Of a stretch of 4,127 nucleotides of DNA, positions 1 to 4,127 are shown one piece after another. Origin of the DNA: a virus (lineage: Duplodnaviria; Heunggongvirae; Uroviricota; Caudoviricetes). Under the pieces are notes generated by a model. That model ran no database searches and was not told the origin of the DNA. It saw nothing but the letters and a program-made list of their open reading frames with translations. Positions within the stretch are counted from its first letter, which is position 1; each line of letters opens with the position of its first letter. The position numbers and the translations under genes were made by a program. The DNA lies in IMG/VR virus record IMGVR_UViG_2698536471_000014, one strand, 5' to 3'.

Positions 1-71
1 TCCTGACTTTCCAGAACCATACGAATCGCCCGCTGACGGACTTCGGGGGAAAAACGAGTATTTTTAGTCAT
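1..71 (-). CDS. IS3-family transposase OrfA, N-terminal 23 codons only (partial, runs off the window start)
   Basis: ATG at complement 69-71 preceded by AAGAGG (complement of 80-85) at about 8 nt; translation MTKNTRFSPEVRQRAIRMVLESQ; frame open to position 1. Confidence 0.8.
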   Translation of the reverse strand, partial: MTKNTRFSPEVRQRAIRMVLESQ

Positions 72-100
72 CCTGTTTACCTCTTTCTCAGGGAGTTGAG

Positions 101-125
101 TCTCCTGGATTTCCGGGGCGGTTCA
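101..125 (-). repeat. 25-bp terminal inverted repeat (IRL-type) of the IS3-family element
   Basis: Reverse complement of 101-125 is TGAACCGCCCCGGAAATCCAGGAGA; identical at 21 of 25 positions to the plus-strand sequence at 4103-4127. Confidence 0.75.
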
Positions 126-947
126 CTGGCGGATGATCCTGCCGTTCGGGCCGTGTTCCGCAATGAGGCAGTGATCCGTCGTGCTGGTGGCGTGGAATGT
201 CTTGAAAGCTGGTTACTTCGTGAAAAAGGCTGCCAGTGGCCTCATTCCGACTGGCACAGCGAGAACATGACAACAATGCGACACGCTCCGGGCGCAATCC
301 GTCTGTGCTGGCACTGCGATAACCAGCTGCGCGATCAGTTCACGGAACGGCTGGAATCAATGGCAACGGATAACTGTGCCCGCTGGGTGTTGTCTGTTGT
401 GCGTCGGGATCTCGGTTTTGATGACAGTCATGTTGTGACAATGCCGGAACTGTGCTGGTGGCTGATTCGTAATGATCTGGCGGATGCCTTACCGGAAAGT
501 GCAGCCCGTAAGGCACTGAGATTACCGAAGCCTGTTGTGCCGTCTGTTACCCGGGAAAGTGACCTTGTGCCTTCGGTTCCTGCCACCAGCATCATCCAGG
601 ATAAGGCGAAAAAGGTGCTGGCGCTGAAAGTGGATCCGGAGTCGCCGGAGTCTTTTATGTTACGCCCAAAACGTCACCGCTGGGTTAATGAAAAGTACAC
701 GCGCTGGGTTAAGACGCAGCCGTGCGCATGTTGTGGAAAACCTGCTGATGATCCCCACCACCTGATAGGCCACGGTCAGGGGGGAATGGGTACAAAAGCG
801 CATGACCTTTTTGTGTTGCCTTTGTGCAGAAAGCATCACGACGAGCTGCATGCGGATACCGTGGCATTTGAAGAGAAGTATGGCTCCCAGCTGGAGCTGA
901 TATTTCGTTTTATCGATCGTGCGCTGGCAATAGGCGTACTGGCGTAA
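126..947 (+). pseudogene. DUF968 / YdfU-like prophage protein, 5'-truncated by the IS insertion (native part 126-947; probable pseudogene or N-terminally deleted product)
   Basis: The tool ORF 96-947 has no in-frame stop upstream to position 1, so the frame runs straight through the IS terminus at 125; the tool 'start' at 96 is a TTG inside the IS inverted repeat. First ATG in the native part is at 267 with only a weak SD. C-terminus carries a Cys/His cluster (CACCGKPADDPHH...CRKHHDELH). Stop TAA at 945-947. DUF968/YdfU naming is by recollection and synteny (immediately upstream of Q). Confidence 0.6.
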
Positions 948-960
948 GTGGAGAACGAGC

Positions 961-1713
961 ATGAACCTTGAAGCCTTACCAAAATATTACTCCCCAAAAT
1001 CTCCAAAATTGAGTGATGACGCACCGGCGACAGGCTCTGGTGGTTTAACGATTACGGATGTGATGGCTGCGCAGGGGATGGTGCAGTCGAAAGCACCGCT
1101 TGGGTTTGCCTTATTCCTGGCAAAAGTTGGTGTTCAGGATCCTCAGTTTGCGATTGAAGGTCTGCTCAATTACGCGATGGCACTGGATAACCCGACATTG
1201 AATAAATTGAGTGAAGAAACCCGGCTACAGATTATTCCTTACCTTGTGAATTTTGCCTTTGCTGATTATTCCAGGTCTGCGGCAAGTAAGGCTCGTTGTG
1301 AGCATTGTGCTGGTACTGGATTTCATAATGTATTGCGCGAAGTGGTGAAACACTCCAGAAGCGGGGAATCTGTTATCAAAGAAGAGTGGGTGAAGGAACT
1401 ATGTCAGCATTGCCATGGTAAGGGAGAAGTCAGCACAGCGTGCAGAGGGTGTAAGGGTAAAGGTATTGTCTTGGATGAAAAAAGGACCCGGCTTTATGGC
1501 ACACCTGTTTATAAGATTTGTGGGCGTTGCAATGGAAAACGGTTTAGTCGTTTACCAACCACACTGGCGCGGCATCATGTCCAGAAGCTGGTACCGGACC
1601 TGAGTGATTATCAGTGGTATAAAGGATATGCAAATGTCATTGATAAACTGGTTACAAAGTGCTGGCAGGAGGAATCTTACGCTGAAGCACAATTGAGAAA
1701 GGTGACGAGATAA
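961..1713 (+). CDS. quuQ: Late-gene antiterminator Q (lambda-Q family, QuuQ-like), 250 aa
   Basis: GGAGAA SD 5-6 nt upstream of ATG 961. Protein shows blocks recalled from lambda Q (SPKSP...SD...TDVMAA, FA(F/Y)ADY(S/C)RSA, CGRC, Q/KC..EES) and four CxxCxG motifs (CEHCAGTG, CQHCHGKG, CRGCKGKG, CGRCNGKR). Lies directly upstream of a PR'-like promoter. Stop TAA at 1711-1713. Confidence 0.85.
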   Translation: MNLEALPKYYSPKSPKLSDDAPATGSGGLTITDVMAAQGMVQSKAPLGFALFLAKVGVQDPQFAIEGLLNYAMALDNPTLNKLSEETRLQIIPYLVNFAFADYSRSAASKARCEHCAGTGFHNVLREVVKHSRSGESVIKEEWVKELCQHCHGKGEVSTACRGCKGKGIVLDEKRTRLYGTPVYKICGRCNGKRFSRLPTTLARHHVQKLVPDLSDYQWYKGYANVIDKLVTKCWQEESYAEAQLRKVTR

Positions 1714-1744
1714 GTGATTTTCGCCGAAGATGGCGACGTGATGC

Positions 1745-1785
1745 TTGCATTTTTCAAAAAATATGGATAAAATTTTTTCAACGAT
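1745..1785 (+). promoter_or_regulatory. PR'-like sigma70 late promoter with promoter-proximal pause element (Q engagement / qut region)
   Basis: -35 TTGCAT (1745-1750), 17-nt spacer, -10 TAAAAT (1768-1773), then tttttcAACGATGGG (AACGAT at 1780-1785). This parallels the lambda PR' arrangement as I recall it (TAAATT-tgactc-AACGATGGG), where AACGAT is the -10-like sigma-dependent pause signal. Confidence 0.6.
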
Positions 1786-1819
1786 GGGCTTTGTATACCC
1801 GAAGTTAAGAAAAAGTAGA

Positions 1820-1843
1820 AAACCCGCTGATGAGCGGGTTTTT
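1820..1843 (+). terminator. Rho-independent terminator, tR'-like, ending a short PR' leader transcript
   Basis: Stem AAACCCGCT (1820-1828) / AGCGGGTTT (1833-1841) with loop GATG, followed by a T-run to 1843. About 60 nt downstream of the predicted start site. Confidence 0.7.
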
Positions 1844-2135
1844 GTGCTTTAAATAGGGTAATAGAGATGTTGAATCTCATTACGGGATTCATGTTAGTTT
1901 ACTTATTATTTATCGGGTGACTTTGTTTTTTGCCTGATGTTTAAAATGCTTTCTTCCAGTACAATGTCCATAGATACAATGAGTCTGCTTATTATATTAT
2001 TAGCAGAGCTATTAAGGTCAAAGTACAGCATAAGCTTTTAAAGCCAATCAACCAGTCATCAAGACAGACGGGTTTATTCATGAAAACTCTCCATGTTTGA
2101 TTCGATGGGGCTTGAAGTTAAAGCTTTAATATAGC

Positions 2136-2348
2136 TCATGAAAGGTAAACATTGGCAGCTGATGGTCCACGCAGACCATTTATCCGGCAAAATTCCACGC
2201 GTAATCCGGTGGTAATTTCTTCTGCATCGCGGAGATTGAGCGCTGAAACATGAAGCTGGACATCGATACGACCATCGGATGGGGTTATAAGACCTTTGCC
2301 GCTTTTGCCGTCAAAGGTTTTGAGAATTCCTGTCATTTTACGGGACAA
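2136..2348 (-). CDS. cspF: Cold-shock-domain protein, CspF/CspH-like (70 aa)
   Basis: Translation [27 protein letters not shown]...[13 protein letters not shown] has CspA-family length and architecture. Start is TTG (complement of 2346-2348) with AAGGA SD 6 nt upstream on the minus strand; the in-frame ATG four codons in is 18 nt from the SD. Lacks the aromatic RNP1 residues seen in CspA/CspB, as expected for CspF/CspH. Confidence 0.85.
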
Positions 2349-2453
2349 AAAAATTCCTTAATACTGATAACTTGGCGCACTATACACACGTTCCTGAAGA
2401 AAGCTATAGTTTTTTGATGGGGTTGAAGATGGCTGGATGTCTAAAATAAACAT

Positions 2454-2648
2454 TGCTTCATATGTTCAACTATGCGTTAATGATTGCGTCGGTTTGAAGA
2501 ACAGACGATATACGAAGTAGTTTACTAAAGCAGTTCTCATTTCAGGTGTTATTCACTTATTCCTTCTTTGAGTCTCTCCAATTAAGTACGAAGTCGTTTC
2601 TGTTATACAAGCCATTTATGCCGAAAGGCTCAAGTTAAGGAATGTAGA
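2454..2648 (+). promoter_or_regulatory. cspB promoter and long cold-shock 5'UTR (cold-box-like and upstream-box-like elements)
   Basis: -35 TTGCTT (2454-2459), 16-nt spacer, -10 GTTAAT (2476-2481), then CGGTTTGAAGAACAGAC, which parallels the cspA promoter and cold box as I recall them (CTTAAT...ACGGTTTGACGTACAGAC). GCCGAAAGGC about 30 nt before the start codon matches the cspA UTR motif. Leader of about 160 nt. Confidence 0.5.
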
Positions 2649-2864
2649 ATGTCAAATAAAATGACTGGTTTAGTAAAATGGTTTAACGCTGATAAAGGTT
2701 TTGGCTTTATTTCTCCTGTTGATGGTAGTAAAGATGTGTTTGTGCATTTTTCTGCGATTCAGAATGATAATTATCGAACCTTATTTGAAGGTCAAAAGGT
2801 TACCTTCTCTGTAGAGAGTGGTGCTAAAGGTCCTGCAGCAGCAAATGTCATAATTACTGATTAA
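2649..2864 (+). CDS. cspB: Major cold-shock protein CspB-like (71 aa)
   Basis: [53 protein letters not shown]...GPAAANV: canonical CspA-family sequence with RNP1 KGFGFI and RNP2 VFVHF. AAGGA SD 7 nt upstream of ATG 2649. Stop TAA at 2862-2864. Confidence 0.9.
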
Positions 2865-2975
2865 AATTCATAGTTTGTCTGTATACGATAACGAAGAAGG
2901 CTGATGCCTGAGTGGAGATACAGACAGAGTGGTGAATATTGGATCTCTTTAATAAAGAGTAAGGAGGTCCAATAC

Positions 2976-3011
2976 ATGAAACAATGGCCAGCATATTTGG
3001 CAATAACTTAA
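2976..3011 (+). CDS. 11-codon mini-ORF (MKQWPAYLAIT) behind a consensus Shine-Dalgarno; candidate small protein or leader peptide
   Basis: AAGGAGGT (2961-2968), the ideal anti-SD complement, lies 7 nt upstream of ATG 2976; stop TAA at 3009-3011. Support is the translation signal only, with no homology evidence. Confidence 0.2.
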   Translation: MKQWPAYLAIT

Positions 3012-3146
3012 TCAGGAAAAGTATGCTAACCATTGTGGTGAAGTGCAGGTTTGCTGCATGAATAGTTTTACAGCAGAAGCTAACTGCTGGCATAGCAAAA
3101 CAAAGTGCGTAAGTGGATGACTCCCACAAAAAGTACCACAATATTA

Positions 3147-3168
3147 AACCCGCTCAGGCGGGTTTTTT
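3147..3168 (+). terminator. Rho-independent terminator, potentially bidirectional, between the cspB unit and the minus-strand small ORF
   Basis: Stem AACCCGC (3147-3153) / GCGGGTT (3158-3164) with loop TCAG, followed by TTTTTT on the plus strand. On the minus strand the same hairpin is followed by TTTAATATT, a weaker U-tract. Confidence 0.7.
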
Positions 3169-3227
3169 ATTATCTGCTTTAAATATGTTATTAAAATATA
3201 AAAAATACTTGTTACGAATAAAATCAA

Positions 3228-3398
3228 TCAAGCTACAGCTTTAAGATTTGTCTGGAATACTTTGTTGCAATGAGGGCAGATCAAAAGGGCACCTTTTTGT
3301 ACTCTTGAAAAACTGTGTTCTGACTCTTGGGTGCAGTTTGGGCAGGAACATTTAACGAGATAATTACGGCGTGATTTTGAGTCTTTACGTTCTGACAT
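3228..3398 (-). CDS. Small Cys4 zinc-ribbon protein, 56 aa (alternative upstream ATG at 3449 would give the 73-aa tool ORF)
   Basis: MSERKDSKSRRNYLVKCSCPNCTQESEHSFSRVQKGALLICPHCNKVFQTNLKAVA has two CxxC pairs about 20 residues apart. The internal ATG (complement of 3396-3398) has an AGGAAAA SD about 7 nt upstream; the ATG at 3449 has no evident SD. It may correspond to a prophage-encoded small zinc-binding protein of the YnfU type, but that name is from uncertain recollection. Confidence 0.55.
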   Translation of the reverse strand: MSERKDSKSRRNYLVKCSCPNCTQESEHSFSRVQKGALLICPHCNKVFQTNLKAVA

Positions 3399-3616
3399 AG
3401 GCTTTTCCTGTATAAATGGCCGTATACAGTACACTAAATATGAAAACATATCTCGTATTATTATTTAATATATGATTTTCTTTTAAAATAATTACCCACA
3501 TTTTTAATGTGTCTGTTTTTTAGCGCCGTTGAGAACAACGTTTGCTATAAAAACTACCCCATAGACTCCGATCTTTTCAAACATATTGCACCATCTGTGT
3601 ACATCGGGGTGAGGAT

Positions 3617-3832
3617 ATGAAATCAATGGATAAGTTAACAACAGGTATCGCCTATGGCACATCGGCTGGTAATGCTGGTTTCTGGGCATTGCAGTTACTC
3701 GATAAAGTAACTCCGTCACAGTGGGCTGCAATCGGTGTGCTGGGTAGTCTGGTATTTGGCTTGCTGACGTACCTGACAAACCTTTATTTCAAGATTAAAG
3801 AAGACAAGCGTAAGGTTGCACGGGGAGAGTAA
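3617..3832 (+). CDS. essQ: Phage-21-type class II holin / pinholin (S21-like), dual-start antiholin and holin
   Basis: [71 protein letters not shown]: two hydrophobic segments and a basic C-terminus, closely resembling S21/EssD as recalled. GGGGTGAGGA SD upstream of ATG 3617; second in-frame ATG at 3626 (M1-K-S-M4 dual-start motif). Stop TAA at 3830-3832. Confidence 0.9.
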
Positions 3833-3836
3833 TTCA

Positions 3837-4102
3837 ATGACACAAAACTATGAACTGATTGTGAAAGGGATCCGCAATTTTGAGAATAAAGTTGCGGTAA
3901 CTGTAGCATTAAGGGACAAAAAACGCTTTGACGGTGAAATTTTTGACCTGGACATCTCGCTGGACCGTGTTGAAGGTGCCGCGCTGGAGTTTTATGAGGC
4001 AGCAGCCAGAAGGAGCATCAGACAGGTCTTCCTGGAAGTTGCAGCCGGGTTATGTGAAGGGGATGAGCAGTCGCCGGAAAAGCGCCCCGTAATTTTAGAG
4101 GC
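3837..4102 (+). pseudogene. Hypothetical prophage protein (YdfR-like by synteny), 3'-truncated by IS insertion at 4102/4103
   Basis: ATG 3837 lies 4 nt after the holin stop, with GGGGAGAG SD (translational coupling). Frame is open through 4102 and continues without a stop into the IS inverted repeat to the window end, so the native C-terminus is replaced. Not lysozyme-like. The YdfR assignment rests on position after the holin in Qin-like prophages, not on a verified alignment. Confidence 0.5.
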
Positions 4103-4127
4103 TGAACCGCCCCGGGTTTCCTGGAGA
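4103..4127 (-). mobile_element. Terminus (IRR-type inverted repeat) of a second IS3-family (IS629-like) element; body continues rightward beyond the window
   Basis: Plus strand 4103-4127 TGAACCGCCCCGGGTTTCCTGGAGA is a 21/25 match to the inverted repeat at 101-125 and matches my recollection of the IS629 right inverted repeat. Orientation (transposase on the minus strand further right) is inferred from the IRL/IRR variant, not observed. Confidence 0.7.

Follow-up and report, generated by a model that had tools for sequence, protein, structure and literature searches.

Genes and features of the locus

The window, by which we mean the whole 4,127-nucleotide stretch of DNA analysed here, covers the late-regulatory part of a lambdoid prophage of the Qin type, which an insertion sequence interrupts at either end (Table 1). 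Many E. coli genomes carry intact prophages that match bases 126–4102 at 99.8–100% identity; the gene order in E. coli O55:H7 CB9615 and strain 2013C-4974 is RusA, KilA-N, DUF968, ydfT (Q), cspF, cspB, ynfU, essQ and ydfR. The gene under study is what remains of the DUF968 member of this series, namely the last 273 codons and the stop codon (the 3′ 83%) of a 329-codon ydfU gene. These codons form a single frame with no interruption, translated from 126–944 as 273 residues with the C-terminal end ...QPCACCGKPADDPHHLIGHGQGGMGTKAHDLFVLPLCRKHHDELHADTVAFEEKYGSQLELIFRFIDRALAIGVLA and closed by a stop codon at 945–947. The intact allele of CB9615 (WP_001519432; 990 nt) and those of other strains are 99–100% identical to the remnant, and base 126 corresponds to codon 57 of the WP_001519432 gene, the first 56 codons being lost.

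Table 1. Coordinates of the features in the window and, in its own numbering, in the compared segment of phage P1
Feature	Position	Strand	Evidence or remarks
IS3-family element end (IS1203/IS629-like)	1..125	-	terminal inverted repeat and first orfA codons; 98.4% identity
5′-truncated YdfU/DUF968 gene	126..947	+	Pfam DUF968 E=1.8e-81; codons 57–329 and stop
N-domain Cys/His site and first beta-beta-alpha unit	231..329	+	C92, H100 (C/H), C117, C120 (H/C)
C-terminal HNH (His-Me finger) nuclease domain	663..944	+	fragment residues 180–273 = full-length 236–329
Core Cys/His motif	723..851	+	fragment C200–H242 = full-length 256–298
Antitermination protein Q (YdfT/QuuQ type)	961..1713	+	Pfam Antiterm PF03589 E=7.8e-53; ydfT in matching genomes
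GC-rich hairpin	1819..1842		T-runs on both strands
cspA thermoregulator (RF01766)	2488..2927	+	156.7 bits, E=4.6e-42
YnfU, small zinc-ribbon protein (PF23499)	3228..3449	-	E=4.7e-31
Second IS end	4103..4127		
pdcB, phage P1 segment	3001..4044		P1 segment numbering
lpa, phage P1 segment	4133..4585		P1 segment numbering

The original prediction, made from the letters alone, had placed a DUF968-family protein in the nin-region slot immediately upstream of Q and had attributed the loss of its N-terminal part to an insertion sequence, and all of this holds. Prophage homology starts exactly at base 126, with 56 codons gone, and Q begins 13 nt past the DUF968 stop. The gene also lies beside RusA: the order RusA–KilA-N–DUF968–Q is common to CB9615 and phage SfII, while phage 689R5 shows YdfU–RusA–Q, and further copies occur in phage genome records including SfIV, ST64B and Stx2-converting phages. 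An in-frame TTG at 96 was considered as a start for the remnant and rejected, as it lies inside the insertion sequence, which also supplies the first 10 codons of that open reading frame; it is further disfavored by a GGGAG that abuts it with no spacing and by the lack of a promoter-like site upstream.

Several other elements of the window were recorded in passing. Q itself contains a DnaJ-type zinc finger comprising four CxxCxGxG repeats (CEHCAGTG, CQHCHGKG, CRGCKGKG and CGRCNGKR); with PF00684, the DnaJ central zinc-finger domain, it reaches 31.5 bits, slightly short of the 32.7-bit cut-off. About 100 nt 3′ of Q lies a strong hairpin (AAAACCCGCTGATGAGCGGGTTTT), which is probably a bidirectional intrinsic terminator and possibly tR′; the terminator scan reported it on the minus strand only. 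The Rfam thermoregulator match spans the 5′ leader and coding region of the prophage cspB, and ynfU, annotated as a 171-nt gene in reference genomes, lies on the opposite strand, flanked by cspB and the gene for the holin.

The insertion sequences and the state of this copy

The left end of the window derives from elements annotated as 'IS3-like element IS1203 family transposase' (98.4% identity), which we take to be IS629. Its terminal repeat ends ...CCGGGGCGGTTCA at 125, and the orfA ATG lies at 71–69 on the minus strand, from where orfA runs leftwards beyond the window, so that the transposase gene is directed away from the remnant. In the AlphaFold2 model described below, the 56 residues removed by the insertion supply the N-terminal domain with two short strands and one helix. 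The insertion also cuts the remnant off from the upstream early promoter, and a crude promoter scan found no sigma-70-like site on the plus strand upstream of the remnant. Given the loss of both the first 56 codons and the upstream promoter, the truncated copy is most likely a silent, unexpressed pseudogene; it is conceivable that a start inside the remnant, or one supplied by the IS, still allows weak expression, and the downstream Q is probably deprived of its normal transcription too. The exact IS/DUF968 junction (125/126; query window 40–330) occurs neither in the GTDB representative genomes nor in the 5,426 complete genomes of E. coli, among which the lone match with 100% coverage is made up of two separate pieces. 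Hence, the insertion allele is either rare or from an unsampled strain, possibly one of Shigella.

A second IS end (TGAACCGCCCCGGGTTTCCTGGAGA) closes the window and cuts ydfR (DUF1327) after about 88 of its 114 codons. We take this end to belong to the same kind of element, judging its identity and orientation from the 25 visible bases and the IS629 repeats. On our reading of the terminal repeats both copies have the same orientation, so that the 3,977-bp Q–csp–holin segment would be flanked by direct IS1203/IS629 copies, resembling a composite transposon or a deletion substrate.

A zinc-knuckle HNH motif at the C-terminus

Pfam DUF968 (PF06147) matches fragment residues 104–270 over profile positions 2–171 of 171 with 272.7 bits (E=1.8e-81), passing its gathering threshold of 27.8 bits. 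The C-terminal part of this match holds the Cys/His cluster that had been noticed in the letters and likened to HNH or His-Me finger nucleases. The cluster (CxxC...HH...CxxHH) is indeed present, though spread over the last 74 residues and not, as was said, the last 60, which is a trivial discrepancy. In full-length numbering, used hereinafter, C256-x2-C259 forms the first zinc knuckle and C290-x2-H293 the second; H267 and H268 stand at the end of strand 1, D283 in the loop, and H294 and H298 in the helix.

Profile searches for HNH families agree with this reading. Pfam HNHc_6 (PF16784) matches fragment residues 195–252 with 27.2 bits (E=3.4e-6), a marginal pass of its 26.6-bit gathering threshold, and is precomputed for most homologues. 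PHROG 96, annotated as 'HNH endonuclease', covers the whole length of the intact protein (E=5e-177), and its C-terminus is also hit by three other HNH PHROGs; NCBIfam offers no model for the DUF968 protein. A profile–profile comparison of the C-terminal domain with phage P1 Ref using hhalign gave E=2.9e-5, with the PCxxC, HH and LPLCRxHH elements aligned. When PDB sequences were searched with the full-length sequence, nothing significant was returned (3g27, E=1.3), and the C-domain profile matched PDB sequences weakly, namely 3g27 (YbcO; E=0.1), McrA (E=0.39) and IscB (E=0.8). The weak alignment with McrA sets the motif against HHVIP...DN...LCPNCHRELH, with D283 beside the D-N of McrA; the loop residue is thus an aspartate as opposed to the canonical asparagine of the HNH motif. 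Taken together, the C-terminal domain carries the complete colicin/Ref-type motif HH...D...CxxHH...H and is a homologue both of YbcO and of the Ref nuclease core from P1, and the evidence supports reading its Cys/His cluster as a zinc-knuckle HNH (His-Me finger) motif.

Conservation was assessed in relatives collected at E<=0.001, with 1755 matches among close relatives and 3008 in an exhaustive search of 50%-identity representatives. Two samples were aligned: 37 full-length sequences (25–99% identity), and 88 representatives covering the motif, clustered at <=50% identity (Table 2). The cluster is, by these alignments, not a chance pattern, since each of its residues is kept in 69–99% of the 88 relatives. 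Within it, the predicted catalytic residues (90–99%) are better conserved than the zinc ligands (69–89%). Two divergent subgroups depart from the pattern in opposite directions: nine aligned sequences have lost the cysteines (PCVVTG..., PLS...) while keeping HH...D...H...H, and three PdcB-like sequences keep the cysteines while losing the HH pair and the helix histidines. The precedence of catalytic residues over ligands, along with the cysteine-less subset, fits an enzyme better than a simple zinc finger.

Table 2. Conservation of the C-terminal motif residues (full-length numbering)
Residue	Full-length sequences	Motif-covering representatives (of 88)
C256	37/37	89%
C259	28/37	69%
H267	33/37	94%
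H268	34/37	95% (84/88)
D283	37/37	99% (87/88)
C290	30/37	80%
H or C at 293	28/37	73%
H294	33/37	91% (80/88)
H298	33/37	90% (79/88)

The structure of the intact protein was predicted with AlphaFold2 from the 37-sequence alignment (mean pLDDT 87.8, pTM 0.56). The 329 residues divide into a confidently folded N-terminal domain (~1–186; pLDDT 93.3), a lower-confidence linker (~187–235) and the C-terminal domain (236–329). The latter displays a strand (265–268), a second strand (286–289) and a helix (291–299), that is, the beta-beta-alpha topology of the His-Me finger, with H268 as the final residue of the first strand and H293, H294 and H298 on the helix. The model therefore combines the metal-finger fold with a predicted catalytic histidine ending strand 1, a loop aspartate in place of the equivalent asparagine, and helix histidines. 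The solved structures closest to it are His-Me finger nucleases; at the level of significance, Foldseek against the PDB returned nothing (best E=1.0), the top matches again being HNH proteins. In sum, the nuclease-like reading put forward from the letters is supported by profiles, predicted structure and conservation.

A possible second finger in the N-terminal domain

The N-terminal domain has a Cys/His site of its own (~87–125; C-x7-[CH]-x16-CWH[HC]DN), whose motif RLCWH[HC]DN is retained in the truncated fragment. Its residues are strongly conserved in the 37 full-length sequences: C92 in 36, C or H at 100, C117 and H or C at 120 in all 37, and D121 in 33. A beta-beta-alpha unit is modelled confidently at this site, and the alignments of the N- and C-domain profiles are in register. 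These features raise the tentative idea, which we hold at somewhat below even odds, that the site is a second, degenerate HNH-like finger and that YdfU is an internally duplicated, pseudo-dimeric His-Me finger protein. H109, at the position of the catalytic histidine, is poorly kept in the same alignment, and the idea stays tentative because a Pfam scan of 35 N-domains matched no HNH family. If it were true, a degenerate N-terminal finger would pair with an active C-terminal one, and a single chain could recognize branched or D-loop DNA in the manner of dimeric HNH resolvases; this is a small structural lead for those who study the intact protein. A lambda Orf-like N-domain has been reported for Gram-positive DUF968/HNHc_6 proteins (PMC4118853); structure and profile comparisons found no such fold in the N-domain of YdfU.

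Predicted function and alternative readings

We propose, with a probability of about 0.8, that the gene is an IS-truncated nin-region member of the YdfU/DUF968 family in a Qin-like prophage, and that it encodes a C-terminal, zinc-stabilized HNH domain that would cut DNA. By the chemistry established for colicin E9, McrA, Ref and similar HNH enzymes, C256, C259, C290 and H293 would hold a structural zinc in a treble clef, H268 would act as the general base that activates water, and H267, H294 and H298 would hold the catalytic divalent metal. The intact protein would cleave DNA during early development of the phage. Its substrate would most likely be an intermediate of recombination or of replication, for instance branched DNA or a D-loop, given that the gene sits beside RusA in a delayed-early operon and that DUF968 domains have been reported in fusions to Erf, Rad52 and RusA (PMC5714182, PMC4118853).

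A rival proposal, in which YdfU like Ref cuts only DNA held in a RecA filament or D-loop, is unlikely. The Ref family profile (PF16786), which hits the region of the Cys/His cluster, reaches only 14.1 bits (E=0.054) against a gathering threshold of 26.9. DNA binding by Ref needs its disordered, basic 76-residue N-terminus (PMC4330346), where YdfU has a folded 186-residue domain, and RecA dependence does not follow from similarity of fold.

Far less probable is that the Cys/His cluster serves solely as a zinc finger, structural or DNA-binding, and that the protein regulates late transcription instead of acting as a nuclease. What invites this view is the company the gene keeps, a late-activator gene always adjoining it, be it Q in lambdoid phages or lpa in P1, where it immediately follows pdcB. 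Some phage records (H26, H37 and H38) label the DUF968 protein as Q, a few others call it a 'transcriptional regulator', and there are weak sequence matches to C2H2 zinc-finger proteins. The Q labels, however, seem to be mis-annotations, because a separate, genuine Q gene follows the DUF968 gene. The residues themselves also speak for an enzyme, as H267, H268, D283, H294 and H298 are conserved above the cysteines and kept in relatives without them, and the top structural matches are nucleases throughout. The least probable reading, a terminase-associated HNH protein that aids cos cleavage and DNA packaging like HK97 gp74, is disfavored because the early nin region that holds the gene is separated from the terminase genes by ~7 kb that include a full lysis cassette, the protein has a large additional N-terminal domain, and its nearest relatives are Ref and YbcO rather than packaging HNH proteins.

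The preferred reading, an HNH nuclease of the nin region, is in its essentials already known. Curtis et al. (2014) described a zinc-finger HNH motif in DUF968 (PMC4118853), and Jablonska et al. (2017) assigned DUF968, with YdfU mentioned by name, to His-Me finger group 7 alongside YbcO (PDB 3g27) and recorded RusA and Q as neighbors (PMC5714182); the assignment is also present in the PHROG annotation. The earlier remark that the function of the family is not established thus stands for its biochemistry and fails for its HNH classification: our literature search found no experimental or biochemical nuclease work on the YdfU family, the papers on YdfU being limited to surveys of genomes, a GWAS linkage to Stx2 phage and a study of Rho terminators, with no functional work among them. 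The outcome is accordingly a correct but ordinary assignment, and matters little beyond what has been published. It would confirm that the gene beside Q in lambdoid prophages, Stx2-converting phages included, which is widespread and classed as a 'domain of unknown function', encodes an HNH-type nuclease. An IS-truncated copy in a decaying prophage is, for its part, a poor starting point for biochemistry.

Comparison with known systems

Lambda NinG/Rap (PF05766) and RusA occupy the same nin-region slot and share with YdfU the general idea of a nuclease acting on DNA structures. NinG also belongs to the His-Me finger superfamily, but membership of the NinG/Rap family was rejected for the window protein, which has no PF05766 profile match at E<=0.1; RusA, a protein of different fold, has a gene of its own in the same prophage.

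The YdfU of the K-12 Qin prophage, about 349 aa long, is of the same family as the window gene and has the same position upstream of Q, the same RusA and Q neighbors and the same C-terminal HNH motif. The window copy differs from it in the absence of the first 56 codons, its intact allele measuring 329 aa.

The DLP12 protein YbcO (PDB 3G27, DUF1364) is a 96-aa stand-alone domain with the motif H...CxxCHDEID, that is, with one histidine and a final aspartate; its family gives no Pfam cross-match with the window protein. The closest characterized homologue is P1 Ref (PDB 3PLW, PF16786), a RecA-dependent HNH nuclease, the window protein lying below the Pfam threshold of its family. Ref combines a disordered, basic N-terminus with a core helix that is interrupted by a long 'helical finger', in contrast to the folded N-domain and uninterrupted H294-x3-H298 helix of YdfU.

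P1 also encodes a full-length homologue of YdfU, PdcB, which is 26% identical over residues 1–329 and shares the CWHHDN motif of the N-domain. Its core helix reads CQSCQRDIE as compared to CRKHHDELH in YdfU. With these helix histidines replaced and a single histidine of the HH pair retained, PdcB may be inactive or use different metal ligands. The placement of pdcB directly before the late promoter activator gene lpa mirrors the YdfU–Q arrangement of the lambdoid phages.
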